Shown: positions 309 through 46,937 of the stretch, piece by piece
Layout of the letters: every line of letters starts with the position of its first letter
Numbering within the stretch: the stretch's first letter is position 1
Source of the DNA: a virus
Virus record (IMG/VR): IMGVR_UViG_3300045988_056969
Location: 46,751 to 110,750 of that record
Length of the DNA: 64,000 nt
Direction: 5' to 3' (one strand)
Program-made: the position numbers and the translations under genes
The notes under the pieces: generated by a model
What the model was told of the DNA's origin: nothing
Database searches by the model: none
The model's input: only the letters and a program-made list of their open reading frames with translations

Positions 309-1589
309 TCATAGTTATAGTAATAAGTACCGTTCCCAAGTTTTTGGATTGTCTAAGGATAAACGTCCATTTGTATTCTATTCGGCTCTAACATAAGGTG
401 TTATTTTAAAATTTATAGGAAATTTGTATCTAAGCAAAGAATAGTGTAATCTCCTATTCTTACTTTTAAAATAGTAGGGTTTATTGTTATACATGAAATG
501 CACTCGAAAATGATTGTCATAATCAATAACCTCTACAATGTGAATATATTTATTATAAAACTTAGATATGTTAACTTCTTTTCCATTCCAGTTAGAGAAT
601 TTCAATCCAGTTAACTCCTCTACCTTTCTCAGCAAGTTCTTAGAGTTGCAAAATTTCATCCATCCAAAATAAGACCTCATTCTTCTATTCAATTCATCTT
701 TATCAATCTTATTCTATTTATATAGATTTATAAGCCTAAACATCCTCATTTTTATAGATTTTCTCAGTAGAACATGAGTATGATAGAATTTATAGCCTAC
801 GAAATTAATACCTCTGCTTTCTACAGGGAATATTTGATAATTAGGCTTCAACTCTAGGTTAAGAACCTGTTTCAAATATAGTTTTATAGATACTAATACA
901 TTTCTCAAATAATTCTTGTCATTACCAAGAATCACAATATCGTCAGCATATCGAAAGTAGTACTTACATTTTAACTCCTCTTTTACCCAGTGGTCAAAAT
1001 ATGTCAGATATAAATTTGCAAAGAATTGTGATAGATAATTTCCAATAGGAACTCCCTTCGCTGAATAAATTATTTCTTTCAACAGTTTTAATAGTTTTTT
1101 ATCCTTTATCTTTCTCTATAACATTTCGTATAAAATGTCGTGAGTTATAGAAGGATAGAATTTTTTTATATCCATTTTCAAGCAATACTTTGTTTCTTCT
1201 GGATGTTTCTATAACACCTTAAACAAATCATACTCTACTTTATGAATACCTCTATTTCGTATAGAGGAATATGTTTGGTCTATAAATATACTAGTCCAAA
1301 TAGGCTCCATAATATTCATTATAGCATGGTGAGTTATTCTATCTGGATAGTATGGAAGTCTAAAGATTAATCTTTCTTTAGGTTCGTATATTATAAAGGT
1401 ACTATATTCAGAGGTTTGATAAATCAAATCCCTTAACTTATCGGATAATTCCTTATTTTCTTTTAATCTATTCTTATCATGCTGCTTGATTCCACATCTA
1501 ATAGACTTATTTCTTCTGGCTTTATCGTCAGCTAGTTCGATGTTATCTTCAGCGTATACTTTCTCGTGCAAATATCCTACACGTTTCAA
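309..1589 (-). CDS. DGR reverse transcriptase; single gene requiring read-through of 4 in-frame TAG codons; real stop TGA at 309-311; start codon uncertain (TTG at 1587-1589)
   Basis: ORF-track fragments 1209-1589, 714-1082 and 378-692 share one frame and are separated only by TAG (plus-strand cta at 1209-1211, 1116-1118, 714-716, 378-380). RT motifs YPDRITHHAIM, FYPSITHDIL, PIGNYLSQFFANLYL (DGR-type I/LGxxxSQ), YADD. Lies next to a TR/VR pair. Confidence 0.8.
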
Positions 1590-1731
1590 TTTTTTATATA
1601 TTTCATCGGAAGCGTTCGAGAATTAACCTACTAACACCCTTCATTCAACACTACGTTATCTTTTGCCTAGAGGCAAGGATATTACTTAGCAAACTAAAAA
1701 AAATAATAAAATGTTTCTAAATATATAATAA

Positions 1732-1827
1732 CTTGACATTGGAATTGGCATTGCTGACGTCATTGTTAGAATTGAAATAGCTGAGACCTGCATTGCTGCC
1801 ATTATTCGCGTTGCTGCCTACTAGCAG
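1732..1827. repeat. DGR template repeat (TR), about 96 bp, non-coding, between RT and target gene
   Basis: Near-identical to 1932-2027 and (as reverse complement) to 29286-29375. Almost all differences fall where TR carries A in the coding sense. Confidence 0.8.
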
Positions 1828-1905
1828 TACTTTTTTGCCAATCAACGGTTTTTAGAAGTAATATCCTACGATTTATCATCTAAATCGATTTTTATATTGT
1901 ATATC

Positions 1906-3723
1906 TTAAGATACTCTATTCAGAGTCCTGAACCCGACATAGGAACCGGCATTGCCGACGCCAGCGCCAGAATAGAAATAGCCGAGACCCGCAAAGCCGC
2001 CATCATTCGCGCCGCCGCCCACCCGCAGCGTGCGAAGCGCTGTGCTGCTTGCGTTGCAGTAATGGTAATCGCAAATATAAGTAGTAGTACTTCCTCCAAC
2101 AGCGGATGGAATTATTTCAGCGGTTTCACCTAAGTCAAATGCCTTAATATAACCATCCGATGCTACTTCGTATCCTGCAACGGTTTTCTCTCCAACTACG
2201 TCTGTAAATTCCGATATGTTAGTAGTTGTATAGACAGTGCTAATCTCATTAGCAGCTGCTCTCACTACAACTACTCCGTCCAGGTTAGTCCAAATGTCTC
2301 CAAACGGATTATCGAATCCTCTCCAGCGAGGTACTTTAAATGTATGAGTTGCTACTGTATTTGTGCCATCTTGAGCTGTACATTCTGGAATAACTAAATC
2401 TTTTACTCCAGTGAAGTTACCAAGTTCATTGCAGTAACCACAAGGTGTAAGTGGATATGTTGCATTATACCCTAACCAACTTGTAGCTGCGTTAGCCCAA
2501 TCTGTAACTCCAGATCCTAAACCTCCTTGATGATATCCATCTGCAATTAACTCTGCATTATATGCAGCCTAAGAATTAAAATTAGCATATTCAATGACAT
2601 AATTCCAGTAGAATATCCATTTGTAATATTCATAGCATAGCAATTCTGAACCAGCATTTGTTGCATATGTTCTCATAGTAGCTCTAGAAATATTAGTTCT
2701 AGGCTTTCCTAAATCACTTCTGAATATATCCTTAGTTTCTAATTCTGTAGTTAGATAATCATCGTAGTTAGCTCTATTTCCTCCACCTCTAAATGCAGTA
2801 GTAGTATTAACTACTGATACAGCTTTTGGAGTTGCGGAGACTGTGGTATCAACTGTACTTCTGTATGCATCTATTAATAGTTCAGGAATTTCTACCCATG
2901 AATCATCAATTTTGACAGTAGAAGTTCTAACCCATCTTTTGTTTCCATCGCTGCCAGATTTTCCATAAAATTTAGGAGTATTAACTCTTACTGTTCCATC
3001 AGTTCCATCTAAGACAGATGGAGTTTCGCCGTCTTCTTTATAAGACCAGTCATCTGGAAACAGATAGTAATTTACTACATCATTGTTTGCTACACAACCT
3101 CTATACGCTGACTGAATAGGAAGAGATTTATGCAACAAAGGATTACCTATTCTAGTAAGTTCCGGAGATGCTACTGTAACATCCCATTCTACTCCATAGG
3201 AATATAAATCCATATTACTATTTAGCTCAGTAACCTACTTATCAAGCTTTTGTTGTGCCTTCTACAATTCTTCCCAAGCCTCATTTAGTGCTGTAAATTG
3301 CTCTTCTAGCTTAGAACTTGAATCTGCCCATTCAGCAGTACCATCTGCTGAGAAAACTAGCATCTATCCAGACGCTCCTCCAGATGGAATATGTTTATTT
3401 CCAGAAGTAGTTGGGTGTACATAATTATTAGCATTATTAGCTATAGTACTTAACTTTTCCTTCTCAGTTTCAGTATAATTGGCTTCAGAAAGTCCCTTTC
3501 CTAACTCCTTATCTACTTTGCCTTCAAGCTCACCCTTAGTAGCTAATTCACTAATATCCTAATGCTCAGTCAAATATCCACTATCATTCTGTAACTAAGA
3601 AGTTTTAGTTGGAATTGCATTAGCTTTGGCATATGTCGTATCTATAACATTTCCAGCACCATCGTAAGTAGCTTTTAAATCGTATGTGGTTTCCCCAACC
3701 TTTATAGATTTGATTGCTGCCAT
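1906..3723 (-). CDS. DGR target protein 1 (tail-fibre/receptor-binding-like, about 605 aa) with C-terminal VR; contains in-frame TAG codons; stop TAA at 1906-1908
   Basis: Frame-0 fragments 1906-2265 and 2569-3213 are joined by TAG (e.g. 2569-2571, 3235-3237, 3262-3264, 3364-3366). ATG at 3721-3723 lies just after an upstream in-frame TAA TAA (3733-3738). N-terminus MAAIKSIKVGETTYDL; Gly/Ala-rich C-terminus covers VR1. Confidence 0.65.
1932..2027. repeat. DGR variable repeat 1 (VR1) in the 3' end of a minus-strand target gene
   Basis: Alignment to TR gives about 25 substitutions, 24 at plus-strand T of TR (coding-sense A to N); one a-to-c change near the end. Confidence 0.8.
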
Positions 3724-3732
3724 ATCATTGTA

Positions 3733-6700
3733 TTATTAAAGTTTCACCAACTACATCGTGATCTATTCTCTCTATGGAAGCAGTTAGGTCCTCAACAGCC
3801 TTCTACAATTCTGCTTTAGTAGCATAGTTCTTGAGAACTTCCTAGTCTACTCCAGAGCCTCCTCCTATACTTCCTCCAACAACTTTTACTGGTTTGGCAG
3901 AACTCTTAAACTGTCCTTCAATATAAATTGTTCCCATATTGTTTAAAATATTAATTGTTCATTTTCTCCATCTACCTCTACACTAGAACCTGGCTATAAA
4001 GCGTCTATCTTTTTCTACAATTCGGCTACGGCCTAGCTAATTAGTTCTTCTACCTCAGCTTTGGTGTAGTATCTCTCTATAAGATATTCGCTCCTAACAT
4101 ATCCAGTATCTTGTAAATCTTTTTCTCCATAGGTGCAATAATAAGTATCTTCTTCAGTCTTACTATTCTCAACTAGGTCATCATAATCAGCTTGTGGTAA
4201 GCATACAAGTTTTGGTACTTCTTCAGTAATAGCAACTTGCTTGCCTCCAGCAAATAGCCTGTTATCTTCTGTGGTAAGTTTAACAGAACTCTCAATAACT
4301 TGCTCAGTTCCTGTTTCCTCAGAAGGTTCTCCAGTTGTTCCCTATTGTACTTCTTTTTCTCCAATTTTCTAAATAGTAATATCAGAAGTTTCTACTGATG
4401 TAGATTTCAAAAGCTCAGTGCTAAATTCTTTAGCAGCAGCAGCCTAATCATCCTGATATTTTTTCTAGGTAACAAATATGAAATCATCATCTCCGGTTTC
4501 AGGAGAGTCTCCCCTTAAACTTTCTTTTGTTACGTAATCTTCGGCTATCTAATCTGATAAATTAGATAATGACTATTGAGTAGCATAAGTAGACTGAGCA
4601 TTTTCCTTAGTAAGAAATTTGTCATCAACCTGCTAAATAGTATAATAAGCCTTAATATCTTCTGTAGTAACGTAGTTTCCAAGTTTTTGCAAACCTTGAA
4701 CTATTTCATCAATCTACTTCTTGGAGTAATAATTTGTAGCAACCCAGGACTGATATTGATTAGTAGTATGATAATTCTAATCCAAATATTCCTTAGTAAT
4801 ATAAACCTTTGCATCATTTGTAACGTCATATACATAGTAATATGTATCAGGCTCTACCGTCCCTTCCTCTACTAACTTTAGATACTCTTCTTCAGTTAAT
4901 GTTACTAAGTTCGGAATATCCGATTCAGTAGCAATCTAATCTTCACCTATAAATAATCCTTCAGACTTAACGTCTACTACTAACTAGCCCTCTCCCTCCA
5001 CTACAGGAGATTTTATCTACCCAACAGTGATGCTTTCTAAGGAGCCATCTCCATCTACCTTAAGAGTTTTATCTAACTCGTCTTGGATAGCCTACTAATC
5101 TTCCTCATATTCTTTCTTTGTAACGAAGACAAAATCATCTCCTTCCATTCCCTCTCCTCTAAGGCTTTCTTTAGTAACGAAAATATCGTTTGTTTCTTCC
5201 TTAGTATAATACTTAGTCAGTGATAGAGCTAAAGAATCGTTAGAGACATAATTAGTAGTTAATTCTTCCAGTGTAGCATAATCTGATAGGCTAGCAATAG
5301 TGTTATCTAAGTCTGTTCTAATCTATACTACAGTAGTATTAAGAGCCTTCTATTTTAATTGCTCTTCTATCTTTTTCCCCCATTCCGCGGATAGGTAAAA
5401 CTAGTTATCGTCTAAGCTATCCTCATATATATAATAATATGTCTCAGCATGAAGATATGGTTTACTTTCATCTATGGGCCTAAAATCGTCTGTAGTATTC
5501 TCAGACCATTCTTTATATTCAGCCTCTGTACAGGTGATTATCTAGATAGATTCATAGGATGCTTTCCATCCTTCCTTGTATTTAATCTTAGACTTATCAA
5601 TCAGCATATAAATATTTCCGTTATCTATGTTAGCAACGGTCATACCTTGATAAGCATACTTCTCTGGAATAGAATAAAGTTCGTCTAAGTTATTAACGAC
5701 TGTTCTATTATCGAGAGGCTTCGGAGTTTCTACGGTTAAAGCGACACCTAAGGTAGCATCACCTGTATATTTAAATGCCATTATTGTGATAGAATAAAGT
5801 TAATTTGATGTGGCAATGCTGAGGAGTAAGTATCTTTCTTAGTCCATACCTTGTAAGTAAATCCATTTATCTACTCGGTAGACGTTTCCCAACCACTTAG
5901 GTCTACATTTAAATATCCAAGTCCTCCATCTACGGTAAATGAATTTAACTATGTGTTACTTCCTGGCAATTTTATAATAGCCTTACCACTTAGTGAAAAT
6001 GTGATAGTTCCAGACGATTGTCCAAAAGGAACTAGCGCCTATTTAATCACACCATCAGTATTACCAGAATACCAAGGATATGTGGCTACTACCTAAGCGG
6101 TAGCGGAAATAGAACCAGCTTCTACTCTCTTATCTGTAACTTCTCCTTTATTATTTATCAAATATTCTCCAGCGGCATAACTCACTGTACCAGAGTGAGT
6201 ATAAGTACCAATAGAATTATATGTATCAGACTCTACAGGAGAACTGTTATAAGTAATAGTTTCTCGTCTGTCAGTTTCTTCTCCAGCATCATTCTTTATA
6301 AATGTAAGTGTAGGAGTTAATAAAGCAGTTCCCACTTCTACTATTTGAGAAGTAAAACTATAATAAAGCTATGGGTATACTAAATCTCTAACTACTGTTG
6401 GAAACAGTAAAGTATCAATAATTTCATTAAAGGGCTTGCCCTTAAGTTTCTCTACTGTAGTCCCTTCAATTACTGTTGAAGTAGTATCATCTGGGAGTTC
6501 CGTCTAATAAGTAGCTATAGTTTCTAAGTTAGTTTGTATATTAGTAATACTTTCAGTATTAGCTTCTACTTTAGTATTTGTCTCTTGTTGTGCTTCCTAA
6601 GTTTTCTATACTTCTTTCTTTGTTTCTTCTAGAGCAGGTTCAAGATTCTTAACATAGATACCTGGAAGGATAATAGAAGAGGTTTCCTCTCCAATCTCCT

Positions 6701-9700
6701 ATTCTATTAAATGAATAGCATTATCTTCCTAAGTAGATAAAATCACCTCTAAGGAATTATTTTCCTTTAGTTCTATAGTTTTGGAATTTTGGAGACTATT
6801 CTTAATCCAATTAAGAATGTTTTTATCAACATCTATATTCTCAATAGCATTGTTCAACTCAACTATAGCTTCATTGATTTTTACTATTTCTTCAGATAGA
6901 TTATTAATTCCTTTTCTATTAGTATCAATTTCTCGCTGTAAATCCTCCTTCAATACAGATATAGAAGTTCTAATATTGCTTATATCGACTTTCAGTTCTT
7001 CTATTGCTTCTGTATTAGATTCATATTCGCTAATAAAGTATAGGGCATAGTCTAGGGCATCCTTCACAGTATTAATGCCTTCTGCAACGTCACTAGTATA
7101 GGTCCATTTTTGTTCTATATACTATACTAGGTCTTTTTGCAGTTCTATGGTTCCACTAATGTTTCCCCACAATAGACTCTACTCATCAGCAATACCTAAG
7201 TTCTTTCTTACTTTAGCTTTTTCTAGTTCTGTCCTATATTCTCCTAAATAGTTATTTCTTAAGAGAGGTATAGGCTCACATTTTATAGGCTTACCCTTTT
7301 TACCACAAGGCACTATATCTGCGTTACTTACCGAAGTGTAAATAGACTGTATCATTCTAGTTTAATAATTGCTATTTAATAAATTCGTGATTATCTAGTC
7401 TTACAGGTAGGTTAATAAAACAAATTAGATTAAGAATATCTTGATAATCTGGTTTATATCCCTTTTTGAGTTTTCTTAGAAAATCCTCATACCTTTTAAT
7501 AGCCTTTCTCTTAAGAGCATCCACAACCTATACGTTTATGTCCATGGTAGTGATTGTCACAGAATCCTCCACAGGTACGGAACATCGCTAGTAATCTTTC
7601 AGCCTCCATGAATTGTTTAAAGCATATTAAATAATCTATAATGTTAAGAGTCATCCATATAAAATCTCGAGCAAATATATCTGCTTCCTAATCTCTAGTT
7701 AGACACTTATTTAGTAAAGCATCAAAGAGTTTCTTACAATAATTAATGTAACACTACTACAAGTTTCCTGTAAAGAAAACATCTACCTTACATTTTTTTA
7801 TAGTAGTTCCTTCTATGTTTCGTTCAAGAACTTCTTTAACTGTACACTCTTCTAGCTTACCTTCTACTTCTTTATATAATTTTTCTCCATCAGTAACATA
7901 GATAGTCTCATAGTATTCCTTGTATTCGTCCGATGAATTTTCATACCATTTCATATTAGGAATAATGATATGGTCTACTACGTAATAACCATCATCCTTG
8001 ACCTTAAACATACACGAGTCTAAGTCTTCTGTATGGTCATTAAGTAGGACATCTATCAGAGTAGCATCGCTTATACTAACTTTGATGATAGTATTCAAGG
8101 TAGCACTCTCACTATACTTATAGGAGTCGTAAGAAGTTACTACCTCTACATCTTCATCAATATACTAGCCATATTCTTTTGAGAAATCTTCTATCAGTAT
8201 TTCCCCATTAATTTGGGTATGTATATCAATACTAAATTCCATATTGCAATAATATTAAGTGTTAGGCCATTGACCGTATTGAGCTGGTGTAGAAAAAGGT
8301 CCCCACTTTCCAGATTGCTTTATACGTCTAGACATAAAAACAGAAGTAAAAGATAAACTAATATCTTGTGGATAGTCAGTCCAGGTATAAGACTATCCAT
8401 CTGGAGTAGGAGGTAATTTATCAATCCCAGAGGAGGGCTGTCCATTCCAGTAGTAGTTATAGTCATAGGCTTTAATAGAGGTTACTTCTGTGGTTTCTCT
8501 CCCGTCAGAATCTATATAGAGAGGATCTCCTTTTTCATTCGTTTTTTGTTTATACTCTATAACTGGTGTTATTCCCTCGGTTCTAGTATATATAGTCTAT
8601 ATAATAGTAGAGACATCACTCGCTACTATTTCATAGATAGTAGTTCCCTATGATTCATCAGCTCCCTAAAAAGTAAATTTAGTTCTTTTCCATATATATG
8701 GATTCTCTTCTGTTGGAAGCTCAAAAGTATCAGACCACTACTTACTTGATAGTTTTATTTCAGATTCATCGGCAGTATTAGCAGGGAGATAATGTATTTT
8801 AATAATAATACTATTAACTGCTTCACTTGAACCGGATAAATCTGATACCTACTTAAATAATTTTTTTAAGTCGTCTTCTACATTTGATTTAGAACCGGAA
8901 GCATTACTTATAATTACTGTCCCATCAGAGATAGGATAAATCTACTACTAATCTTTGTTGTATACAATTGTTCCAGTTGCCATATTAATGTATTTGTCTT
9001 ATTTTGTCATTATATGGATTTCCATCATGAAGCTAAGCCAACTCTATTTCAGTTCTTTTTTCTTCAATATCCATTTGTCTATCTTTATAAGTAGAATCAG
9101 ACTGAGCTTTAAGCCAGTTAACTTTATATTCTAACTGCATCTTCTACTATTCTAATCCCAGTCTCTATTCATCTAAGCTTTCAATCTTTTGCTGAGCTTT
9201 CTATAATTCTTGCTGTAACTACTAAGCCTATTGAGAGGTTTCTTCTAATTTTTCTTGTAGTTGCTGAAGCTGATTATTTTCCTCTTTGCGAACTTGAACA
9301 GCTTTCTTAACCTTATATTTAAGGTCTGTCAGACTCTTAGATGTAAGAGCCTCAAAAATAATATCTGGATCCATCTGTTGACTTTTTACGAACTCTGGAA
9401 TGATTGCTTTTATAGTCTATAGATCTTCCATCACTTCTGAACTAGCAGTAATATGAATATCGTAGTCAGTAACAGTAAAATACTCAGGAAGTGCTGTAAA
9501 TATCTGTTGATATTTATCCCCAAGTATAATAGTTCCAGTTAATCCTTTCTTATAAGTAACTTTAGCCTAATTAAGACTATCTAGTAGTATCTCGCAGGTT
9601 ATTAAATCCATCTGCTAAAAATAGTGCTTAGTTACTATATACGAGTTAGCTACTCCCTACTTAATATTAGTAACTGCATCTCTAGTTTCTATACCGTTAA

Positions 9701-11347
9701 GTCGTTCCCTAAATACTCCAGTTATTGATGATGTAGTTTGTTCTACTGATTGAATAGCTAATTCAATAGCCTATACAGCCTATGCTTTTAAGGTATCATC
9801 AAATCCGTTATATATCTAGTTTGGAGCTTGCTGTCCGTCATTCCTACCTTCTTGGCTTGAGTCTATCCACATGATACCACCTTTTTTATAAGCTAACCAT
9901 TTTTGTACTCGTTCTGGCCATTTAACTCCTAAGTTGGTAGGCAACAGAGACATATCCATAATAACTCCAGCAGTACCACTATTAGCTATTAGATTATCTC
10001 TATAATAGTTTAATAAGTCGTATCTATCCTACAGATGTGCACATTTTAATATAAGAGAATAAGGCTACTAAGAGCGATTTAAGAAATATACTCCATTTAC
10101 CGATAAAGAACAGAAGTTGGGATTATCTTTAGACCTCATAACAGTCTTGTCTAATCCTCTAAGAATATATATCTCTTCTCCTATTCTGATAGTATTGTAT
10201 CTCTACATCACAAAATCATCATCTGTTTCAATCCATTCAACATCATAGACTGGGATTAACTAGAACCTATGAGCACTATATTCATTGTCTGGATAGCCGG
10301 GAATGGTTTCATGATTCTAATCTTCATTTACTACTGTACAAGTATCTCCATATACTCTTCTATAAACAGCAGCTGAATCATCAGCTCGCCATTCATCTTT
10401 TAGTCTTCTTAAATCTTCTCTAGATATTTCTTTGCCATATTTAGCTAAAATCTAACTCTTACTCATCCACTTTCTTACTACAACTCTATATGAGTTCCTT
10501 ACATATGGAGATTCTGGATTTCTATCAACAAATGTATTAAGTGGGTTTAATACCTCTATTTCAATATTAGTTCCAGAAGCCGATGATTTCACTCTAAAGA
10601 ATGTATAACCAGTAATTAATAAGTCTGTTAGTAACTAACGTAACTTAGTAATTAAATCGGTTTCTCTGGATTGCATAATATAATGTACTATATTCTAAGC
10701 TGCAATTTCATATTGAGAAATAAAGGATTGGTCAATATCCTATATAATTTTATCTAACTAAGTCTTTACAGCTTTATCAGTAATATCCTTGCCATCAATA
10801 AACTTAAGAATTGAATTACTTAAATGGTCTTTCAAAAACTTTACTATTCCCTTGGTTATTTCTAGCTATTTTTCTCTTGTTATATTACTGATAGTATCTG
10901 AATCTTTGCAAGAAATTTTCGGAAGTATAGGAGTTCCTAAATATTCTCCAACTAGAGCATCTACGTGTTTCTTTAATAAAGGCGTAAACTCTACCGAAGT
11001 GGGGCTACCTATTCCGAAGTTTTCTTCCAGATAACGGAACTATTCAGGATCTCTTTTACCATTATAATAATTATAAGCTTTCTGTAACTCATACTTATCA
11101 TATACAAGTTCCGCAATAGCCTCGTTTGTCTTGTCTATCAATTCCTTCTCTTTCATAACATAAATTATGTTGTTCTGGAGGAAGTTTAGTAGCGTTATAA
11201 TACTTAACTCTTTGTAACTTCCTACTTCTTAATTCTTCCTTAATAAATGGCAGAAATTCTTCGTCTGGTAAATCTGCTATTATTACTAATGGCATTTCTG
11301 ACCTATCAAAGTTAAAAGAGACTTTATACCCAACTGGGTCTAAACTC
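3733..11347 (-). other. Late virion-structural gene block on the minus strand; genes fragmented by very frequent in-frame TAG; includes coiled-coil fibre-like fragments and a portal-like C-terminal region near 9.0-9.96 kb
   Basis: Only short same-strand ORF fragments (4173-4364, 5542-5781, 6093-6335, 6729-7067, 7757-8098) and none of 60 aa or more between 8.1 and 11.1 kb. Manual translation of 9003-9960 with TAG=Q gives a continuous protein with a portal-like Gln-rich coiled-coil C-terminus. Confidence 0.45.
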
Positions 11348-13711
11348 TCAATATCTAGTCCGCCTATATACTCCATTTTGTACAAGTCCCTCATATATTC
11401 TAGGATCACTTGTTTCAACTCTGTATGGGTCATCATATTCGTTTCTTTGCATATTAAGTTCAGGAGTTTTCTTAGTTGGAATAACTCCAAATCTTTTAAT
11501 TCCTCTCTCGTCGTAATAGTAACCAAAATCTTGGAACTATTCAACTTCTTTCTCCACAAGTACGGGCTGTCTTCCTGATAGCTCTTGGTCTGCTAACTCA
11601 GTCATACCTACAGCGGCTACAATATCATACTTACCCTTATTTTCATCATTATATGCAGTGAACTATTCTAGCATTTCTTCGAACCATATAGTATGGCAAT
11701 AGTCTTCTATAAAGGCGGCTGTTAAATCAGTATGCTATTCGATTATAGTTTTTGTAGCAGGAGTTCCATACTATTTAGTAGTTCCATTTCTAACGTCAGT
11801 TAGAGTAGCTCTTGGGCGCTTCATAAAATAGTTAAGGCATCCTTTTTCTCTAGCCCAAGTAACCATACCCATACGAGTAGCTTCTATATTTATTTTACAA
11901 TTATAATAGCGAGCTAAACACATAGCTATTTTATAGGCTTCTCTGATGTCTCCAGGTCTATCCTTGTACATAGCAACATACTGAGGGTCATTCATACCAA
12001 ACGCACGTTTCTTAATCATTATGCAGAAATCAGACGGGTCTCTGGTTTCCTTAGAAGTCTAATTCGCTCCAATATCAATACCGTCTATACCTGCTACATA
12101 TAAGTCTCGCATCTCTTTATAAACTGGAACTTCAAAATCCTAGCCATTATCTTCTGCCTCCTATCTAAGCTTTTCCATTTGTTCTTTATATAAGTCAGAC
12201 CATATTGGATGCTCTAGAATTTTTACTTTGCCATTGCTGTTAGGAATCCATTTAAAACCATCAATATTATCCTAAGTATGTTTATTATTTTTGTAAAAAT
12301 AATCAATATAACCACATTCGGGTCTTGGGCCAATTTGTTTAAGTCTTATATTAGCTATCTATTCGGCAACTAAAATTTTATTAAACTTATTAACACCTTC
12401 TAGATTAAATGCTTCTTCTGCATTCCAACAACGTTCAGCGCATTTCTTTAGGTAGTCTTCTGGTACAGCTAACAGATTATCTCGCTCCTCCTATAAGAAT
12501 TTCTTATATTCCACAGTATTACATACTCCTCTGTGGTCCATAAATTCTGGATTCAAAGATTGTATAAAGTATGGAATAAAGAATCCACTCTCTATAGTAG
12601 TCCCATCCTAAGTCCAATTATGTCTAAATGGAAGAATCTTATATGCTCTTGGATTATAGTAAATCTTTTTTAAGCCCTCTAGAGGAGCACCCATATCACC
12701 GCCAGTACCTCCAAACAACATTGTTCCACGAGGCATACCTTGAACTTCACAAAGTTCTTGACCTTGTACCACAGCGGTATCAAGTCCAGGCCAGGAACCA
12801 GCTTCATCATATATTAATAAATCTACACGGTCTCCACGAATATTAGATGGTTTAGCTCCGTTAATTGCTACAACCTCAGATTTAAATCCTACGTCTTCAA
12901 ACTAACCATTTATTTTGATTTGTTTACCTGATTTCTTTCTCAAATCCTGGTCAATAAGTCGCAATTTAAAAAATCCTCCTCCAGTACAGGTATTTAAGAA
13001 TGTAAGAGCATTATCAAACTTACTAAAGGTACCCTTAAGGAAGGTATCATTAAAGCAAGTAATCATAACCCTACTTCTTCTAATAACAGAGTACATACGA
13101 GCAGAAAGAGAGGCGTTTATTTCAGAGAATCCAATAGAACGAGCTTTCATTAAAGCTGCGTGCTTGTGTAGCACTCTAGCCATCTATAGATAATGAAAGA
13201 ACATATAATGTGATGCAAAGAATATTGGGAAGTCATTATCAGTACCCTCACCAGAGGCTTTCTGCTAGTCAATAGTAGGTAACTAATAGAAATTTAAGAA
13301 GAAGTAATTATCTCCAGTAATGGTGTATCCATTAACTGTCATTCCATACTTACATCTTCTATATTGCTCTTTCCAAAATTCGTTGTACCGCTTACTATCT
13401 CTAAGGTAGGGACAGTATTGACCAGTTCGTTTATATACTTCCCTAGTCTCGGTAAACCAATCTGGATTAAAGTCCAATCCATGAGTTTCGTCAATAGGTC
13501 TGTATCCAGTTATTTCATAAGATAAGGTAGGGTCAAATACTTCTATTTTATCTCCTATTTTAACATCCCAATAGTCAGAATTTCTGACCCTTTCCTCTCT
13601 TATTTTCTATACTAATTCTCTAGCTTCTTTAGCATCCTCTTTCTATTCTTTTTCTCTTACCTAATCTACAATATTCTATATTTCTTCAGGTAATATCTTT
13701 TTTCTTGGCAT
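11348..13711 (-). CDS. terL: Terminase large subunit (787 codons) with about 25 in-frame TAG codons; stop TGA at 11348-11350
   Basis: Same-frame fragments 11771-12019, 12902-13183 and 13283-13477 are joined by TAG. Walker-B-like VDLLIYDEAGSW; nuclease motif YVAGIDGIDIGAN...DPSDFC; length typical of TerL. Confidence 0.75.
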
Positions 13712-15823
13712 AATTAAAAGTCTCCTGGGTCAAAACCATCCACAGCTCCAGCTCTAACAGTAGATTGTTCAGTAAGTTCTTTCTTAACCTAGTCTTCTAG
13801 TGTTATGAGTTCTTCATGAACTTTGTGAAGAGTAGCCATTTCCTTCATTACTTTTTCAGCCTGGAATACTGGCTTGCCGTTATTATCACGCTCATTTAAA
13901 TCTACAATAGTTTCGAAATAATCAATAAACTAGTCTGCAGCTCTTTTAGCTGCTTCTAGTAATTTTATTGACTTGTTTGAATCTTGTAACGCTCTGTATT
14001 TCCTACAAGCTTCTCTAAATATAGGGTCATTAAATTCTGACTCTGTCAATCCAGAATCACTAATAGCTTCGTCATGTCGTTCATGTTCCGAATACTAACT
14101 GTACGGACTTTTCCAGTCTATAGCTAAATAAATGTAAGATAGTTCTCTAGTAGCTCTATCCTTTTCTGCAGATTTATCCCTCTAGATTAAAGCCTTAAAT
14201 TCCTTAACTAGTAATATCTCTGGTTCATTTATTTCTAGCTATTTAGTTAAAGTGTTATAGTTAAATACATTCATAATCATTAATCATTATCATACACATT
14301 AGATAATCTTATTATTTCTTTTTCATTTTGGAACCGCACTTATTGACTTTCATTTTTGAGCCACAAGCGTCTTTCTTAGCATATTGTTTTCTGTCAGGAA
14401 CCCATTTTCCTCCCTGGAAATTACCCTTATGTCCTTTATTGGCCATAGTTTCCTAATCATTGTATTTATTGATTGATATAGAATCTCTTGAGGCTTCGTC
14501 TCTAGCAGATTTCATATCTTTCTTATACTAAGCTCTTCCTGCCTTAAATTTATCAACTTCATTAGCTTTCTTAGTAACTTTAGTTCCTTTTTGTGCTTTC
14601 TGGCAAGCTTTACAGATTCTACCGCCTTGCTTAAAATATACAAGCTCTTCTCCTTCTGGACATACTCCTTTTAGCTTCTTATAATACTCAAGCTTAGCTC
14701 CAAGCCTAGCCATTACTCCTCCTTGCATTTTCTGCATAAATTCCTGATACTTAGCTTTAATGCCGTCTTCACCTAATTGTTCAGCATAAGCTTGTAAATC
14801 CTGTTCAGACTATATCTGAACTCCCTATGACTGCGCATCCTATATTAAATATGCCACAAACGCTTTTTGTAATTCTTGTTGATTATTCATTGTTCCTCCT
14901 TGTTGAAATTTAGTTGTATGTCCCGGAGATAATGTTAATGGTTTAGCTTCTGATTTTCTAGAATTCCATACATCTCCAAGATAATTAAATAATCTCTATA
15001 ACCCCCTATGTATCCCAAAATCTCCTCCTTGTACTGTATTTCCCATAGTATATCTAATGGTAGAAGGTTGTTTAGGCTTACTTGAAGGCTACTCGGCTCT
15101 TGTCTATTCACTAGCTGGCTAACTGCCTCTTGTAATAGTTGGTATTCCTCTACCCCAAGTAGTTCCTTTTGTTGTAGCAATTAGGTCTGGAGCTTCTATA
15201 CTAATCTAAGTATCTGACTAAGGAATCTGAATGGTAGAAGGTTGTTTAGGCTTACTTGAAGGCTGTCCTAAGTCTGTAGTATATACAGAATTTCCCCACA
15301 TAAACTGTTTTAGTCCTCTCTCTCTAGCAGCCCTAAAAGCTGTCTTAAAATCTTTAACACCTCTTAAATCATCCTAAGCTATTTCAGCAGTAGGAAGAGG
15401 TTCTAATCTTGTGGGTAATGAAGGCATTTCTGGAGCATCAAAATATGCCTCTTGTAACTTAGGCATTTTCTATTGTGCGGTTCTTCTAATAATGTCTGGA
15501 TTAGTTGCCCAAGTCTAATGCAACTACCTCAAGGTTCTCTCATCTAAGTCCGCATCTCCGTAAATAATTTTGATATTACGCATCAATTCAGGGTCAAACT
15601 ACACTTTAGCCATTACTTTTCTACTTTAATTAAATCCTTAGTATTAAACACTGCTTCCTACATAAGTCCGGAATCAGTAAACCATCTACATCTTAATCCT
15701 CGTAATCCTTGGTTATCTTTAAATAAAGCTGCTTCTCTTCTTAGAACAAGCATAACTGGAGAATGCATTACTTTACACTACCGTAAAGTAACACAATCCC
15801 CAGGCTTAAAATAAACTTTTTCA
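13712..15823 (-). other. Additional late genes with in-frame TAG (fragments 14528-14737 zinc-ribbon CxxC..CxxC; 14935-15180)
   Basis: Short minus-strand ORF fragments in several frames; boundaries not resolved. Confidence 0.3.
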
Positions 15824-20287: not shown

Positions 20288-20304
20288 AACTATTAATTTT
20301 GGCG

Positions 20305-20376
20305 TTGCCCTACTAGGATTCGAACCCAGACTAAATGATTTAGAGTCATCTGTGCTGACCATTACACCATAGGGCA
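20305..20376 (-). tRNA. Suppressor tRNA, anticodon CTA (reads UAG); clean cloverleaf; probably Gln-derived
   Basis: Minus-strand TGCCCTA-T-G-GTGT-AATGGTCA-GCAC-A-GATGA-CTCTAAA-TCATT-TAGT-CTGGG-TTCGAAT-CCTAG-TAGGGCA-A. All stems pair. The D-arm is identical to the tRNA-Gln(TTG)-like gene at 34198. Confidence 0.8.
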
Positions 20377-23343: not shown

Positions 23344-23413
23344 TCCCTACTAGTATAATGGATTGCGTCTCCCTTTAAAGGAGAAGATTCTGGTTCAAGT
23401 CCAGAGTAGGGAT
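23344..23413 (+). tRNA. tRNA with anticodon TTA (UUA; would read UAA, and UAG by wobble); ochre-suppressor-like
   Basis: TCCCTAC/GTAGGGA acceptor; anticodon arm TCTCC-CTTTAAA-GGAGA; T-arm TCTGG-TTCAAGT-CCAGA. Confidence 0.6.
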
Positions 23414-23448
23414 CTTCATAGTTATATTATTTGTGATTATTACTTTTC

Positions 23449-26569: not shown

Positions 26570-26653
26570 GGGATAGCGCCAACGATGGAGAGTTGGGACG
26601 GACTGTAAATCCGTTGCCTTTAGGCTTAGTAGGTTCGAATCCTACCTATCCCA
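26570..26653 (+). tRNA. tRNA-Tyr (anticodon GTA), long variable arm
   Basis: GGGATAG/CTATCCC acceptor; anticodon arm ACGGA-CTGTAAA-TCCGT; 14-nt variable arm; T-arm GTAGG-TTCGAAT-CCTAC. Confidence 0.75.
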
Positions 26654-26680
26654 CAATTATGTAAAATAACTTACCAAAAG

Positions 26681-27052: not shown

Positions 27053-27265
27053 TGGAAGACAAATATGAAGGGCTATCTGATGAAGAACTCAAAGAAATCT
27101 TCGAAGATATGCAGGCAGACTATTGGATAGATTATTATCAATCTATCTATGAATAAAACCCTATTAGCGAGACCTAGGATATGGATTTTAGAAATATGTA
27201 TACCCACTGCATATAGGTTAGTCATATTTAAATGAGGAAACCAGGGTTCTCTACTAGGTCGATTC

Positions 27266-27300
27266 GGGATTGTAACCGGTAATTGGTAGCCGCGCAGATT
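27266..27300 (+). tRNA. 5' half (exon 1) of a split type-II tRNA: acceptor GGGATTG, D-arm, 5' strand of the anticodon stem GCAGA
   Basis: Pairs perfectly with the 3' half at 27826-27872 (acceptor 7/7 bp, anticodon stem GCAGA/TCTGC). Confidence 0.5.
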
Positions 27301-27325
27301 AAACTAATAATTAAAAATTAAATTT

Positions 27326-27727
27326 ATGGAATTAAGAGAATTTTCTACTTTTACTAAATAGGGAAATGTAGGACTTGCTTATGCTATTGCCTATTATTCT
27401 AAATTAGGGTATACTATTAGTATTCCCTTAACTGATTCACAAGATTATGACATAATAGTTGATACTGGAAATACCTTACTAAAAGTGTAGGTAAAGACTA
27501 CAACTTGTAGAAGAGATAGTGGAAACTACTAGTTAAACTTAAAAGTAAGTGGCGGAAATAGAAGCGGAACAGGAAAAGTAAAGACCTTCGATTTAAATAA
27601 ATGCGACCTGATATTCGCAATGACTGAGTAGTTTGAATTTTATTCTATTCCGAGGTCTGAAATTTCTGCAGCATCTTCTATTACTCTTGGAGAAAAGTAT
27701 TTACCTTTCAAGGTGTCTTTAATTTAA
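27326..27727 (+). CDS. YraN/UPF0102-like PD-(D/E)xK endonuclease (133 aa) with 4 in-frame TAG; sits inside the interrupted tRNA; absent from the ORF track
   Basis: MELREFSTFTK-Q-GNVGLAYAIAYYSKLGYTISIPLTDSQDYDIIVDTGNTLLKV-Q-VKTTT... fits the G.GE..A..YL...GY.IL...GEIDLI...VEVK pattern; TAA at 27725-27727. Confidence 0.55.
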
Positions 27728-27733
27728 TAAGAG

Positions 27734-27817
27734 GGGAGATTATTCCGTAGATGGTAGCGGGGCGCACTGTAAATGCGCTGCCTAACGGCTCGGGGTGTTC
27801 GACTCACTCATCTCCCA
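27734..27817 (+). tRNA. tRNA-Tyr-like (anticodon GTA) with a long variable arm, lying inside the tRNA-interrupting insertion
   Basis: GGGAGAT/ATCTCCC acceptor; anticodon arm GCGCA-CTGTAAA-TGCGC; T-arm GGGTG-TTCGACT-CACTC; weak D-stem. Confidence 0.5.
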
Positions 27818-27825
27818 CTACTAAT

Positions 27826-27872
27826 AAATCTGCTCTCTTTTGAGACTGGAGGTTCGAGTCCTCCCAATCCCA
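27826..27872 (+). tRNA. 3' half (exon 2) of the split tRNA: TCTGC anticodon-stem strand, variable hairpin CTCTC-ttt-GAGA, T-arm GGAGG-TTCGAGT-CCTCC, acceptor CAATCCC, discriminator A
   Basis: Complementary to exon 1 at 27266-27300. Confidence 0.5.
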
Positions 27873-28112
27873 CACTAATTTCAATATATTATGATGATAT
27901 TTGTATATTCAGCATTTATATACATAATAAGCATGTACATAGTTGGCCTTTATATGGCAGTAAATGAACGATTTGTTACAGTTAGAAGACTCGCAATAAT
28001 GGCATTACCAGTAATAAATACTATATTTGTTATTGTAATACTATTATTTGGTATTAAACCATTTATAAAAACAGTTATAAACGAATTTAAAGAAATTACA
28101 AAATGACAAATT

Positions 28113-30072: not shown

Positions 30073-30162
30073 GGAAGGGTGGCAGAGTCAGGTTTATTGC
30101 AACGCTCTTGAAAAGCGTCGGGCGTGATGAGCGTCCCCAGGGTTCGAATCCCTGTCCTTCCG
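30073..30162 (+). tRNA. tRNA-Ser (anticodon TGA), type II
   Basis: GGAAGGG/TCCTTCC; anticodon arm ACGCT-CTTGAAA-AGCGT; long variable arm; discriminator G. Confidence 0.75.
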
Positions 30163-30167
30163 CAAAT

Positions 30168-34197: not shown

Positions 34198-34270
34198 TGG
34201 GCTATGGTGTAATGGTTAGCACTACAGATTTTGATTCTGTCAGTCTAGGTTCGAGTCCCTCCTACCCTAC
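34198..34270 (+). tRNA. tRNA-Gln-like (anticodon TTG); D-arm identical to the CTA suppressor; T-arm and acceptor irregular, so possibly degenerate
   Basis: TGGGCTATGGTGTAATGGTTAGCAC...ACAGA-TTTTGAT-TCTGT; acceptor TGGGCTA/TACCCTA with one C-C mismatch; T-stem pairs only 2-3 bp. Confidence 0.45.
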
Positions 34271-37752: not shown

Positions 37753-37837
37753 ATCCGTGTGGGTGAATGGTTTAGCCATCAGTCTGCAAAACTGAAAAGA
37801 GAAATCTTTAATGAGGGTTCGAATCCCTCCACGGATT
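37753..37837 (+). tRNA. Atypical type-II tRNA with anticodon GCA (Cys), a 17-nt variable arm and discriminator U
   Basis: ATCCGTG/CACGGAT perfect acceptor; anticodon arm TCAGT-CTGCAAA-ACTGA; variable hairpin AAAGA-gaaa-TCTTT; T-arm GAGGG-TTCGAAT-CCCTC. Confidence 0.55.
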
Positions 37838-37848
37838 CTAATTTTAAA

Positions 37849-38639: not shown

Positions 38640-38718
38640 CGTGGAGTAGAGAAGTGGTCATCTCGCTAGGCTCATAACCTAGAAATCGTCATAAACGGTT
38701 CGAATCCTACCTCCGCAA
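38640..38718 (+). tRNA. Initiator-like tRNA-Met (anticodon CAT; C1 x A72 mismatch); T-arm poorly paired, so possibly degenerate
   Basis: CGTGGAG/CTCCGCA-A; D GAGA/TCTC; anticodon arm CTAGG-CTCATAA-CCTAG; the T region AAACGGTTCGAATCCTAC pairs poorly. Confidence 0.4.
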
Positions 38719-38962
38719 CGAAACTCCTTTTGTGGCCCTGAATTAGATTAATTATTAACAATTTTAAACTTTGATGTTATGAAGAAAGTAATTAATGTTG
38801 TGAAGAAAGCTGCTAAGTGGTATTTTGAACAGAGTTCTAAGAGCTATACATGGTTAGTTTCTGGAACTATTCCGCCTCCTTATAGAGGTCTAGAGTAAAG
38901 ATACTACTAAAAGGTAAGTACCAAAGGGGTACTTATCTACACCCGTGGAGAAAATTAACTAT

Positions 38963-39559: not shown

Positions 39560-39632
39560 TGGGCCGTTAGCTCAAATGGCTAGAGCGCTGGTTTTGCACA
39601 CCGGAAGATAGGGTTCGAGTCCCTGCGTGTCC
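39560..39632 (+). tRNA. tRNA-Ala (anticodon TGC) with G3-U70, but acceptor positions 5-7 are not complementary
   Basis: GGGCCGT vs CGTGTCC; D GCTC/GAGC; anticodon arm CTGGT-TTTGCAC-ACCGG; T-arm TAGGG-TTCGAGT-CCCTG. Confidence 0.5.
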
Positions 39633-39841
39633 ACAAACTTTATTTAAAAAATTATGAAAGTATATGTAGTTGTAGTAAATTATCACCAGCTAATGCTCCT
39701 CAAAATTATGAAACTGATTGCCAAATCTTCTTAGACAAGAAACAGGCAGAGAAGTATAAAGAGGCTAAGGAAAAAGAGTTTCCTATTAGATGGGGAGGAG
39801 AGTATAATCATTGTAAACTAATTAAAAAGCATTTGTAATAT

Positions 39842-39915
39842 CGCGGGATGATAGCAGAGGTAGCTAGTCAGGCTCATAACCTGAAGGTCGTCGGTTCGAA
39901 TCCGAGTGGGGGATC
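39842..39915 (+). tRNA. fMet-like tRNA (anticodon CAT), close to E. coli initiator up to the T-loop, but the 3' acceptor strand TGGGGGA is not complementary to 5' CGCGGGA
   Basis: D TAGC/GCTA; anticodon arm TCAGG-CTCATAA-CCTGA; AGGTC-GTCGG-TTCGAAT-CCGAG, then TGGGGGATC. Confidence 0.4.
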
Positions 39916-46565: not shown

Positions 46566-46937
46566 ATGAAGTTCTATCCGTTTGATTATGGTTTTGTTCT
46601 CTCCCTAGAGAAACAAGCTTTAATTAGAATGTATGAATACTTCAAAGTATCTAGAATTGCTGAAGGTAACGAAGTTGTTGAAAAGAATCTAAAACTCGCA
46701 CTAGGACTTTTAGATATTGTTCTAGAGATAGATTCTGCCTATCATTGTGATTTCAGACCTGGGTCTGAAGGATTCGTAGATAGGCACATAAACATTAAGA
46801 ACTGGAAACGATTCTGGCCTAAAGCTGCTGATCTTGATTTGAGTAAACCTATTCTTCAAGACCATTTGAGAAGAGAAAAAGCCTGGTACTTGTACAATAA
46901 ACTTAGGTTTGAACGTATGAGAACTTGGTGGGATTAA
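46566..46937 (+). CDS. Hypothetical protein (track ORF 46503-46937 trimmed to the ATG after the rnhA stop)
   Basis: Same frame as the track ORF; the upstream part overlaps rnhA. Confidence 0.4.
   Translation: MKFYPFDYGFVLSLEKQALIRMYEYFKVSRIAEGNEVVEKNLKLALGLLDIVLEIDSAYHCDFRPGSEGFVDRHINIKNWKRFWPKAADLDLSKPILQDHLRREKAWYLYNKLRFERMRTWWD

Follow-up and report, generated by a model that had tools for sequence, protein, structure and literature searches.

Homing endonucleases are thought, to our knowledge, to persist in essential genes only inside self-splicing introns or inteins, and otherwise to lie between genes. Genes can also be left in pieces by them: the nrdA gene of Aeromonas phage Aeh1 is reportedly split by insertion of the homing endonuclease gene mobE, and 'fractured genes' with split inteins are said to be a parallel. 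In transfer RNA (tRNA) genes, nucleases of the Pfam family PF11645 are known as the homing enzymes of group I introns in the anticodon loops of tRNA-fMet(CAU) and tRNA-Arg(UCU) (PMC13011429). I-Ssp6803I, of the same family, is a tetramer with a pseudo-palindromic recognition site of 23 base pairs (bp) (PMC3384342). Here we describe a locus in a 64,000-nucleotide (nt) stretch of viral DNA (positions 46,751 to 110,750 of IMG/VR record IMGVR_UViG_3300045988_056969; hereafter the window), which is part of a large tailed-phage genome. At this locus a tRNA-Tyr gene is split in its anticodon loop by a cassette that holds a PF11645 nuclease gene and a second, complete tRNA-Tyr gene. We consider it probable that this is an intron-less homing-endonuclease cassette that disrupts its target tRNA-Tyr gene and supplies a sequence-divergent replacement.

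The locus shares with the I-Ssp6803I/PF11645 intron nucleases the enzyme family, the D...Q-x-K motif and an insertion site in a tRNA anticodon loop, and in both the pseudo-palindromic sequence that is recognised is presumably that of the anticodon stem. It differs from them in that there is no ribozyme and the damage is offset by a complete second tRNA gene, not by splicing; in addition, the target is tRNA-Tyr (tRNA-Ser in relatives), the host is a TAG-recoded phage, and a free-standing form also occurs. As in Aeh1 nrdA/mobE, the two parts of a host gene are separated by a free-standing nuclease gene, but the halves of genes-in-pieces stay functional through subunit assembly or trans-splicing inteins, whereas the halves here appear dead and a spare copy supplies the function. 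Archaeal split and intron-containing tRNAs of the Nanoarchaeum type likewise have halves that are parted in the anticodon-loop region and pair through the acceptor and anticodon stems; unlike them, the present gene has no bulge-helix-bulge, lacks anticodon nucleotides, belongs to a bacterial/phage setting and has a mobile nuclease and a tRNA between its halves. The nuclease SegB of phages T4 and T6 resembles the present one in being an intron-less and intein-less enzyme encoded among phage tRNA genes, polymorphic and moving with neighbouring tRNAs, of which tRNA-Tyr is a prominent passenger in both systems (PMC2330249; PMC13096335). SegB, however, is a GIY-YIG enzyme that recognises a T-arm motif and lies between genes, while the enzyme here is of the PD-(D/E)xK type and sits inside the anticodon loop of its target, and the passenger tRNA, unlike that of SegB, has the identity of the gene destroyed. 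In the searchable literature on nested or interrupted phage tRNAs and on PF11645, no description of this nested architecture was found.

The 5′ half of the split (outer) gene reads GGGATTG-TA-ACCGGTAATTGGTAGCCGC-GCAGA, and its 3′ half, from 27829 to 27872, reads TCTGC-TCTCTTTTGAGAC-TGGAGGTTCGAGTCCTCC-CAATCCC-A; here TCTGC (27829–27833) is followed by a variable-arm hairpin (TCTC-TTTT-GAGA), a T arm (GGAGG-TTCGAGT-CCTCC) and CAATCCC-A, which ends at 27872. The halves pair at 7/7 positions of the acceptor stem and 5/5 of the anticodon stem, the latter being extendable to 7 bp (GCAGATT/AATCTGC), and when joined artificially they gave ARAGORN tRNA calls that span 27266–27872. Exact-pattern scans of IMG/VR with each outer half returned 36 and 32 loci. 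In 31 related phage contigs both halves are identical to those of the window (33/33 and 44/44 nt) and form one uninterrupted 84-nt tRNA, GGGATTGTAACCGGTAATTGGTAGCCGCGCAGA-CTGTAAA-TCTGCTCTCTTTTGAGACTGGAGGTTCGAGTCCTCCCAATCCCA, a type II tRNA-Tyr(GTA). The joined-half calls and, more decisively, the 31 uninterrupted homologs establish that the outer halves belong to one gene and that their pairing is not due to chance, and the CTGTAAA loop of the homologs identifies that gene as tRNA-Tyr(GTA). BLAST comparison with five relatives whose flanks are 98–99.7% identical (L019, L032, L034, L012 and L016) showed that homology stops at 27298 and restarts at 27825, with only the 3 nt CTG between the breakpoints in the relatives; the flanks are >99% identical to the window in the empty-site relatives L019, L032 and L034. 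Because this CTG includes the first anticodon base, G34, and is absent at both junctions, no excision can rebuild the GTA anticodon. The interruption falls on the dyad of the anticodon stem-loop. The outer halves appear to be non-functional leftovers.

ARAGORN called 21 tRNA genes in the window, and its tRNA-Tyr genes are three, namely the intact Tyr_A, the split outer gene and the inner gene within the insert (Table 1). In intron mode (-i0,700/900) the program gave no call for the outer tRNA of the window, and none for the Tyr_A gene of a related contig (L025, described below), whose split is precise; since it missed both known split genes, this mode is unreliable for nested architectures. 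More generally, tRNA finders and open reading frame (ORF) callers miss the split gene and the TAG-containing nuclease. A preliminary description of this stretch had recognised, at essentially the same coordinates, a tRNA gene split in the anticodon loop by a PD-(D/E)xK nuclease and a tRNA-Tyr insert, and its perfect pairing of the halves (7/7 and 5/5) is borne out by the sequence. Its separation of roughly 520 bp becomes 526 bp (27299–27824) when set by the BLAST breakpoints. The comparison with related phages that it had proposed yielded the 31 uninterrupted homologs with identical halves, and with their CTGTAAA loop the Leu(UAA)-like identity that it had considered is rejected.

Table 1. Positions of the elements of the split tRNA-Tyr locus and of two further tRNA genes of the window.
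Feature	Position	Strand	Description
Outer tRNA-Tyr(GTA), 5′ half	27266–27298	+	Acceptor 5′ strand, D arm, anticodon-stem 5′ strand GCAGA
Outer tRNA-Tyr, 3′ half	27825–27872	+	Loop nt 35–38 TAAA, TCTGC, variable arm, T arm, acceptor 3′ strand, discriminator A
Inserted cassette	27299–27824 (526 bp)	+	Replaces tRNA nt 32–34 (CTG); BLAST breakpoints
Homing-endonuclease-like gene	27326–27727	+	133 codons + TAA; four TAG read as Gln; Pfam PDDEXK_5
Cargo tRNA-Tyr(GTA)	27734–27817	+	ARAGORN (its call: 27734–27818); starts 6 nt downstream of the nuclease
8-nt direct repeat ACTAATAA, 5′ copy	27303–27310	+	From the sequence
8-nt direct repeat ACTAATAA, 3′ copy	27820–27827	+	Last 3 bases overlap the retained loop TAA
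Tyr_A, second resident tRNA-Tyr(GTA)	26570–26654	+	Intact in the window; ARAGORN
Amber-suppressor tRNA, anticodon CTA	20304–20376	-	ARAGORN; derived from tRNA-Gln

When TAG is read as Gln, the 133-residue nuclease matches PF11645 (PDDEXK_5) over residues 11–121 with 67.3 bits (E=1.8e-18; cut-off 26.1). Its best solved relative is PDB 2OST (E=2.3e-7), which we take to be I-Ssp6803I, the homing enzyme of the intron in tRNA-fMet of Synechocystis. The catalytic D...(E/Q)-x-K motif is kept: D42 and K57 do not vary among ten aligned homologs, and Q55, which is aligned to the VQVK of 2OST, is nearly invariant. A search of NCBIfam gave the nuclease no significant name, PHROGs assigns it to phrog_5018 ('unknown function'), and the PDDEXK_5 family is present in a single copy in the window. 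Relative to the copy in contig L038 (91% amino acid identity) there are 52 synonymous and 14 nonsynonymous differences (nonsynonymous-to-synonymous ratio, pN/pS, 0.07), and relative to the copies in L073 and L074, two contigs with the same nested allele, there are 7 differences, all synonymous. The nuclease is under strong purifying selection, and its gene is free-standing, lying outside any intron or intein.

The in-frame TAGs of the nuclease ORF occupy codons 12, 55, 69 and 102. That TAG stands for Gln here is supported by three observations: codon 55, a TAG in the window, aligns with the near-invariant Q of the Q-x-K motif; codon 69, also TAG in the window, is CAG in L038; and the CTA suppressor is derived from a tRNA-Gln, sharing CTATGGTGTAATGGTyAGCAC with the tRNA-Gln(TTG) at 34199–34270. 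TAG recoding is real in the window genome, where late genes carry 4–28 in-frame TAGs each, and the CTA suppressor is needed for translating the four TAG codons of the nuclease. The in-frame TAGs are concentrated in a minus-strand structural block (318–15625) that includes TerL (11351–13729) and the portal gene (8988–11228), and the plus-strand genes from 24000 to 61000 are nearly without them, the nuclease being an exception with a late-gene-like TAG density. Since TAG is lacking from the majority of plus-strand genes near the tRNA array, the four TAGs of the nuclease amount to a late-gene-like dependence on the suppressor, and this dependence would delay its expression. A tRNA with a TTA anticodon, resembling an ochre suppressor, was also observed at 23344–23414 (+), and TAA is still the final codon of the nuclease ORF and of other ORFs.

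The inner, or cargo, tRNA is perfectly paired over the 7 bp of its acceptor stem (GGGAGAT/ATCTCCC); its discriminator is A, its variable arm is long, and it has the anticodon stem GCGCA/TGCGC and the loop CTGTAAA. When 16 nuclease-linked tRNA-Tyr genes, each taken from another contig, were aligned, double compensatory changes were found at 13 of the 14 predicted pairs, the anticodon and T stems had no broken pair, and the loop was essentially invariant; compared with the L038 copy alone, the cargo tRNA shows compensatory changes in the acceptor, T and variable stems. Such covariation indicates that the cargo tRNA is a working gene under selection. Around the anticodon it differs from the outer target tRNA at 8 of 23 bp, all of them outside the loop. 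The inner tRNA by itself scores about 34 bits against the Rfam tRNA model, and a longer match at 27736–27872, the only significant one in an Rfam scan of 27100–28000, fuses the 5′ part of the inner tRNA to the T arm of the outer one and has mismatches in the acceptor. For the contents of the insert, then, the nuclease ORF of the preliminary description (27326–27727, with four TAG codons) is confirmed by translation, and its dependence on the phage's own recoding agrees with the TAG at Q55, the CAG at codon 69 in L038 and the Gln-derived suppressor. The assignment to PD-(D/E)xK holds and that to YraN does not, PF11645 being the sole significant family, and the 'tRNA-Tyr-like element' is a tRNA-Tyr(GTA) whose compensatory changes make '-like' an understatement.

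Nested tRNA genes of this kind recur. Contig L025, of the same phage group, has its Tyr_A ortholog split as ...ACGGA-CTGTAA | 505 bp | A-TCCGT..., a precise insertion at about nt 37/38 (hereafter L025a), and the insert consists of a nuclease (58% amino acid identity, one TAG) followed by its own tRNA-Tyr. The window and L025 each keep the other tRNA-Tyr paralog intact, and the nucleases of the window and of L025a would have different specificities for the two paralogous genes. In L057 the interrupted gene is of the Tyr_A type, the insert comprises a nuclease (60% identical) and a tRNA-Tyr, and the entire outer anticodon loop is gone; the ends of this insert (1141–1153 and 1664–1676) form a perfect 13-nt inverted repeat, TAATATTGTAATA / TATTACAATATTA, which abuts the outer anticodon stem and would form an 18-bp helix. 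The split tRNA-Tyr of L058 has the order 5′ half, cargo tRNA-Tyr, nuclease, 3′ half, with only C32 missing and a 3′ junction G34|TAAA. A tRNA-Ser is affected in the same way at L025 5509–6115, where a 43%-identical nuclease and an inner tRNA-Ser(TGA) split the gene; its uninterrupted counterpart is the tRNA-Ser(TGA) of the window at 30073–30163 (91 versus 607 nt). A further, probable case is a Ser(GCT) gene at L039 406–1014, whose outer halves gave no clean manual fold. The same contig has, at 1468–1965, a nuclease homolog with in-frame TGA codons in a TGA-recoded phage, followed by an aberrant Tyr(GTA)-like element that has no normal D arm, a very long variable region and no ARAGORN call. A strict detector, which tried all joins, required 7/7 acceptor pairing and excluded ends shared with intact tRNAs (this removes chimeras of neighbouring tRNAs), recovered the nested cases and found none in 12 control windows (0/12). 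Every nested case combines a PDDEXK_5-family nuclease with a break in the anticodon loop of a tRNA of the same identity.

The cassette also occurs without the outer gene. In L038 it is free-standing (nuclease 91% and cargo tRNA 89% identical), both outer halves are absent, and the cargo tRNA sits in place of the resident gene. Cargo tRNAs group by nuclease lineage and not with resident tRNAs, with the exception of L058, whose cargo is 85% identical to Tyr_A. We collected viral loci (n=23) by a profile search, and bacterial loci by a profile search of genome contigs from an alignment of six sequences. A tRNA-Tyr starts about 20 nt or less after the nuclease stop in about 17 of the 23 viral loci and lies just upstream in three, and among the homologs in bacterial metagenome-assembled genomes (MAGs; 40–56% identity) 18 of 22 are directly upstream of a tRNA-Tyr(GTA). 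These MAGs belong to Anaerolineae, Chloroflexia, several lineages of the candidate phyla radiation (CPR), Gammaproteobacteria and Solirubrobacterales; one example of the gene order is Thr-nuclease-Tyr-Thr-Trp. No introns and no split tRNA halves were seen in the bacterial nuclease loci examined. In L077, L079, L085–L089 and L091 (CPR and 'Gammaproteobacteria' MAGs) the tRNA-Tyr(GTA) that follows the nuclease homolog has only 73–75 nt and lacks the long variable arm that a bacterial tRNA-Tyr should have.

The nested allele is in the minority, with 31 empty sites in IMG/VR versus three filled ones (the window, L073 and L074, which provide three different genomic backgrounds), and shows presence/absence polymorphism with an intact empty site among close relatives. 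L073 (UMKK01001295.1) carries the same nested allele and is 96.3% identical to the window over 7 kb. L074 (DXLM01000001.1; 186,052 bp), which also carries it, was deposited as a Bacteroides sp. MAG and is evidently a complete or near-complete phage genome of the window's group; its label suggests a Bacteroides-associated human-gut origin for the window. An annotated phage collection yielded generic tRNA matches and no other relatives. As far as 27875, where the split tRNA ends, L074 matches the window at 99% identity. Of its two flanks, the upstream one agrees with L019 (100%) and the downstream one with L001 (99.8%), and the gene is intact in both L019 and L001. This switch point is where conversion resolved within the 44-nt 3′ half would be expected to leave its trace, which is supportive only. 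Many relatives (L002, L035, L001 and others) switch abruptly between about 75–85% and about 95–99% identity at or near this tRNA-Tyr (around 27160–27900), as if a recombination boundary lay here throughout the phage group.

The reading of the insert as an intron-less homing cassette draws support from the anatomy of the locus, the intact alleles, the recurrence, the selection on nuclease and cargo tRNA and the absence of a ribozyme. For the steps of homing itself we propose the following, by analogy with the characterised enzymes. Translation of the nuclease would require that the amber suppressor of the phage, which inserts Gln, be active, and the enzyme would recognise the pseudo-palindromic anticodon stem-loop DNA of an uninterrupted tRNA-Tyr in co-infecting relatives, cutting near the dyad; the empty allele would thus be cut in the anticodon stem-loop, as by the characterised relative in tRNA-fMet. 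Repair of the break from the cassette-bearing genome would copy in the nuclease and the cargo tRNA, and the insertion would destroy the recognition site. With the same loop and a different anticodon stem and flanks, the cargo tRNA would escape cleavage, its immunity being expected from the 8 of 23 bp at which it departs from the target, and would replace the lost tRNA-Tyr function. As the cargo supplies this function, no self-splicing intron would be needed, and the outer halves would be left as dead remnants.

Several observations weigh against this scheme. We infer the target site and the immunity of the cargo from homology and from the positions of the insertions. The junctions are heterogeneous, from precise in L025a through one nt lost in L058 and three here to the whole loop in L057, and classical homing into an identical empty site would give uniform junctions; the loss is mostly 5′ of the break, with TAAA or AAA kept on the 3′ side. 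The 7-kb identity profile against L073 is mosaic, with no distinct co-conversion tract, and the phage group is mosaic in general, for which reasons the boundary in L074 is suggestive only. The scheme does not account for the 8-nt terminal repeat ACTAATAA, which is absent from the intact target allele and is therefore not a target-site duplication; the repeat may mark where cassette ends met in a tandem or circular form. A tandem junction would recall the SegB-driven tandem amplification of segB with tRNA-Tyr (PMC13096335). Finally, in bacterial chromosomes the nuclease occurs beside tRNA-Tyr in free-standing form only, and this could instead be due to a functional link that has nothing to do with homing.

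The alternative closest to the known members of the family is a self-splicing intron, of group I or another type, with a homing endonuclease as in cyanobacterial tRNA-fMet, such that splicing restores the outer tRNA. The anticodon-loop position, the nuclease family (that of the tRNA-fMet and tRNA-Arg group I introns) and the precise insertion in L025 Tyr_A would suit an intron, and anticodon-loop introns can evade standard tools (PMC13011429). A permissive Rfam scan (E≤10) of 27100–28000, the covariance search proposed in the preliminary description, nevertheless matched no group I or other intron family, and 20 homologous bacterial loci yielded no intron either. Only 27 + 6 + 7 nt of the insert (about 40 nt) belong to neither the ORF nor the inner tRNA, whereas bacterial tRNA group I introns span 184–894 nt (PMC13011429). 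There is no G anywhere in 27802–27828, hence no omega-G; in addition the CTG is lost here, the loop is wholly lost in L057, and the L038 cassette exists without exons. On the lack of a covariance match, the small amount of non-coding sequence, the replaced CTG (nt 32–34) and the missing terminal G, a group I intron was rejected. An intron is thus largely refuted already and is scarcely credible; of the two options in the preliminary description, 'tRNA intron or HEG-mediated insertion', it is the homing-endonuclease-mediated insertion that fits. The cassette fails every group I intron test and, as far as its sequence indicates, would behave as a free-standing homing endonuclease of the SegB kind. 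Excision could also be imagined at the RNA level without a ribozyme, RNase P and RNase Z freeing the inner tRNA, and the outer halves acting as a split tRNA or being re-ligated by an RNA ligase into a product that would join ...GCGCAGA to TCTGCTCTC...; we regard this as highly improbable. A related version, which is very unlikely, is a ribozyme-free, protein-processed 'tRNA-punctuated intron': in precise insertions such as L025 Tyr_A the inner tRNA would be cut out by RNase P and RNase Z and the outer halves trimmed and re-ligated or kept as a nicked pair, so that each locus would yield two tRNAs and a nuclease messenger RNA (mRNA), and the window copy would be a decayed instance. RNA-level processing would be in keeping with a predicted fold of the 607-nt precursor, in which the outer acceptor, anticodon (7 bp), variable and T helices frame the insert, with the unchanged outer halves in all three nested genomes, and with the precise junction of L025a and the 13-bp inverted repeat of L057, which lengthens the stem. 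The predicted fold, however, would show only the complementarity of the halves, and has a continuous 7-bp stem with no bulge-helix-bulge motif at the boundaries; the loss of nt 32–33 and the first anticodon base leaves no Tyr-decoding loop in the window; some 400 nt of nuclease mRNA would remain on the 5′ half; zero changes in 77 nt are not significant at about 1% divergence among the nested copies; and the free-standing form of L038 has no halves.

A different objection is that something other than the nuclease made the insertions. The nested structures would then be by-products of general recombination among paralogous tRNA-Tyr genes in a hot-spot, and the PDDEXK_5 enzyme would have another role tied to tRNA-Tyr, for example that of a domesticated nuclease by which, as by SegB, anti-defence tRNA alleles are amplified or exchanged. 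This would accommodate the heterogeneous junctions, the hint of tandem forms in the terminal repeat, the strong purifying selection on the nuclease and its tight linkage to tRNA-Tyr in bacteria of many phyla, where no split genes occur; SegB itself, a tRNA-linked nuclease, serves its phage by amplifying tRNA-Tyr against Septu (PMC13096335). It is at odds, however, with the fact that all nested cases hold a nuclease of this family and break in a same-identity anticodon loop, which is where the characterised members act, and with the sporadic presence and absence among near-identical genomes (31 empty, three filled) that is typical of selfish elements. The two roles, homing and tRNA-Tyr function, can moreover coexist. 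We therefore consider a non-agent nuclease unlikely. An assembly artefact or chimera that joined two tRNA-Tyr regions might be suspected in metagenome-derived sequence, in which repeated tRNA genes can mis-assemble; since the nested allele recurs with the same junctions in L073 and L074, which were assembled independently and differ in their flanks, and since analogous nested structures are found in other contigs, the chance of this is negligible.

Elsewhere in the tRNA array of the window there are possible tRNA remnants or unusual tRNAs at 37753–37838, 38640–38719, 39561–39633 and 39851–39906. These comprise oversized calls (Cys, 86 nt; Met, 80 nt), one match found by Rfam only and one partial match (model positions 9–63).

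An intron-less homing cassette at this locus would represent a third solution to the persistence of a homing endonuclease in an essential gene, which is to break the target gene and carry a spare copy that would be immune to cleavage. It would explain duplicated and fragmentary tRNAs in the tRNA arrays of large phages, and would give a function, on sequence grounds, to the unannotated phage family phrog_5018. The range of the I-Ssp6803I family, beyond cyanobacterial introns, comes to include recoded gut phages as well as tRNA-Tyr loci in many phyla of bacteria, and the nested loci offer natural pairs of nuclease and target with differing specificity (two tRNA-Tyr paralogs and one tRNA-Ser) for retargeting studies. 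Phage tRNA-Tyr is a known counter-measure against tRNA-cleaving defences, and a nuclease that drives the replacement of tRNA-Tyr alleles could also shape the conflict between phage and host.

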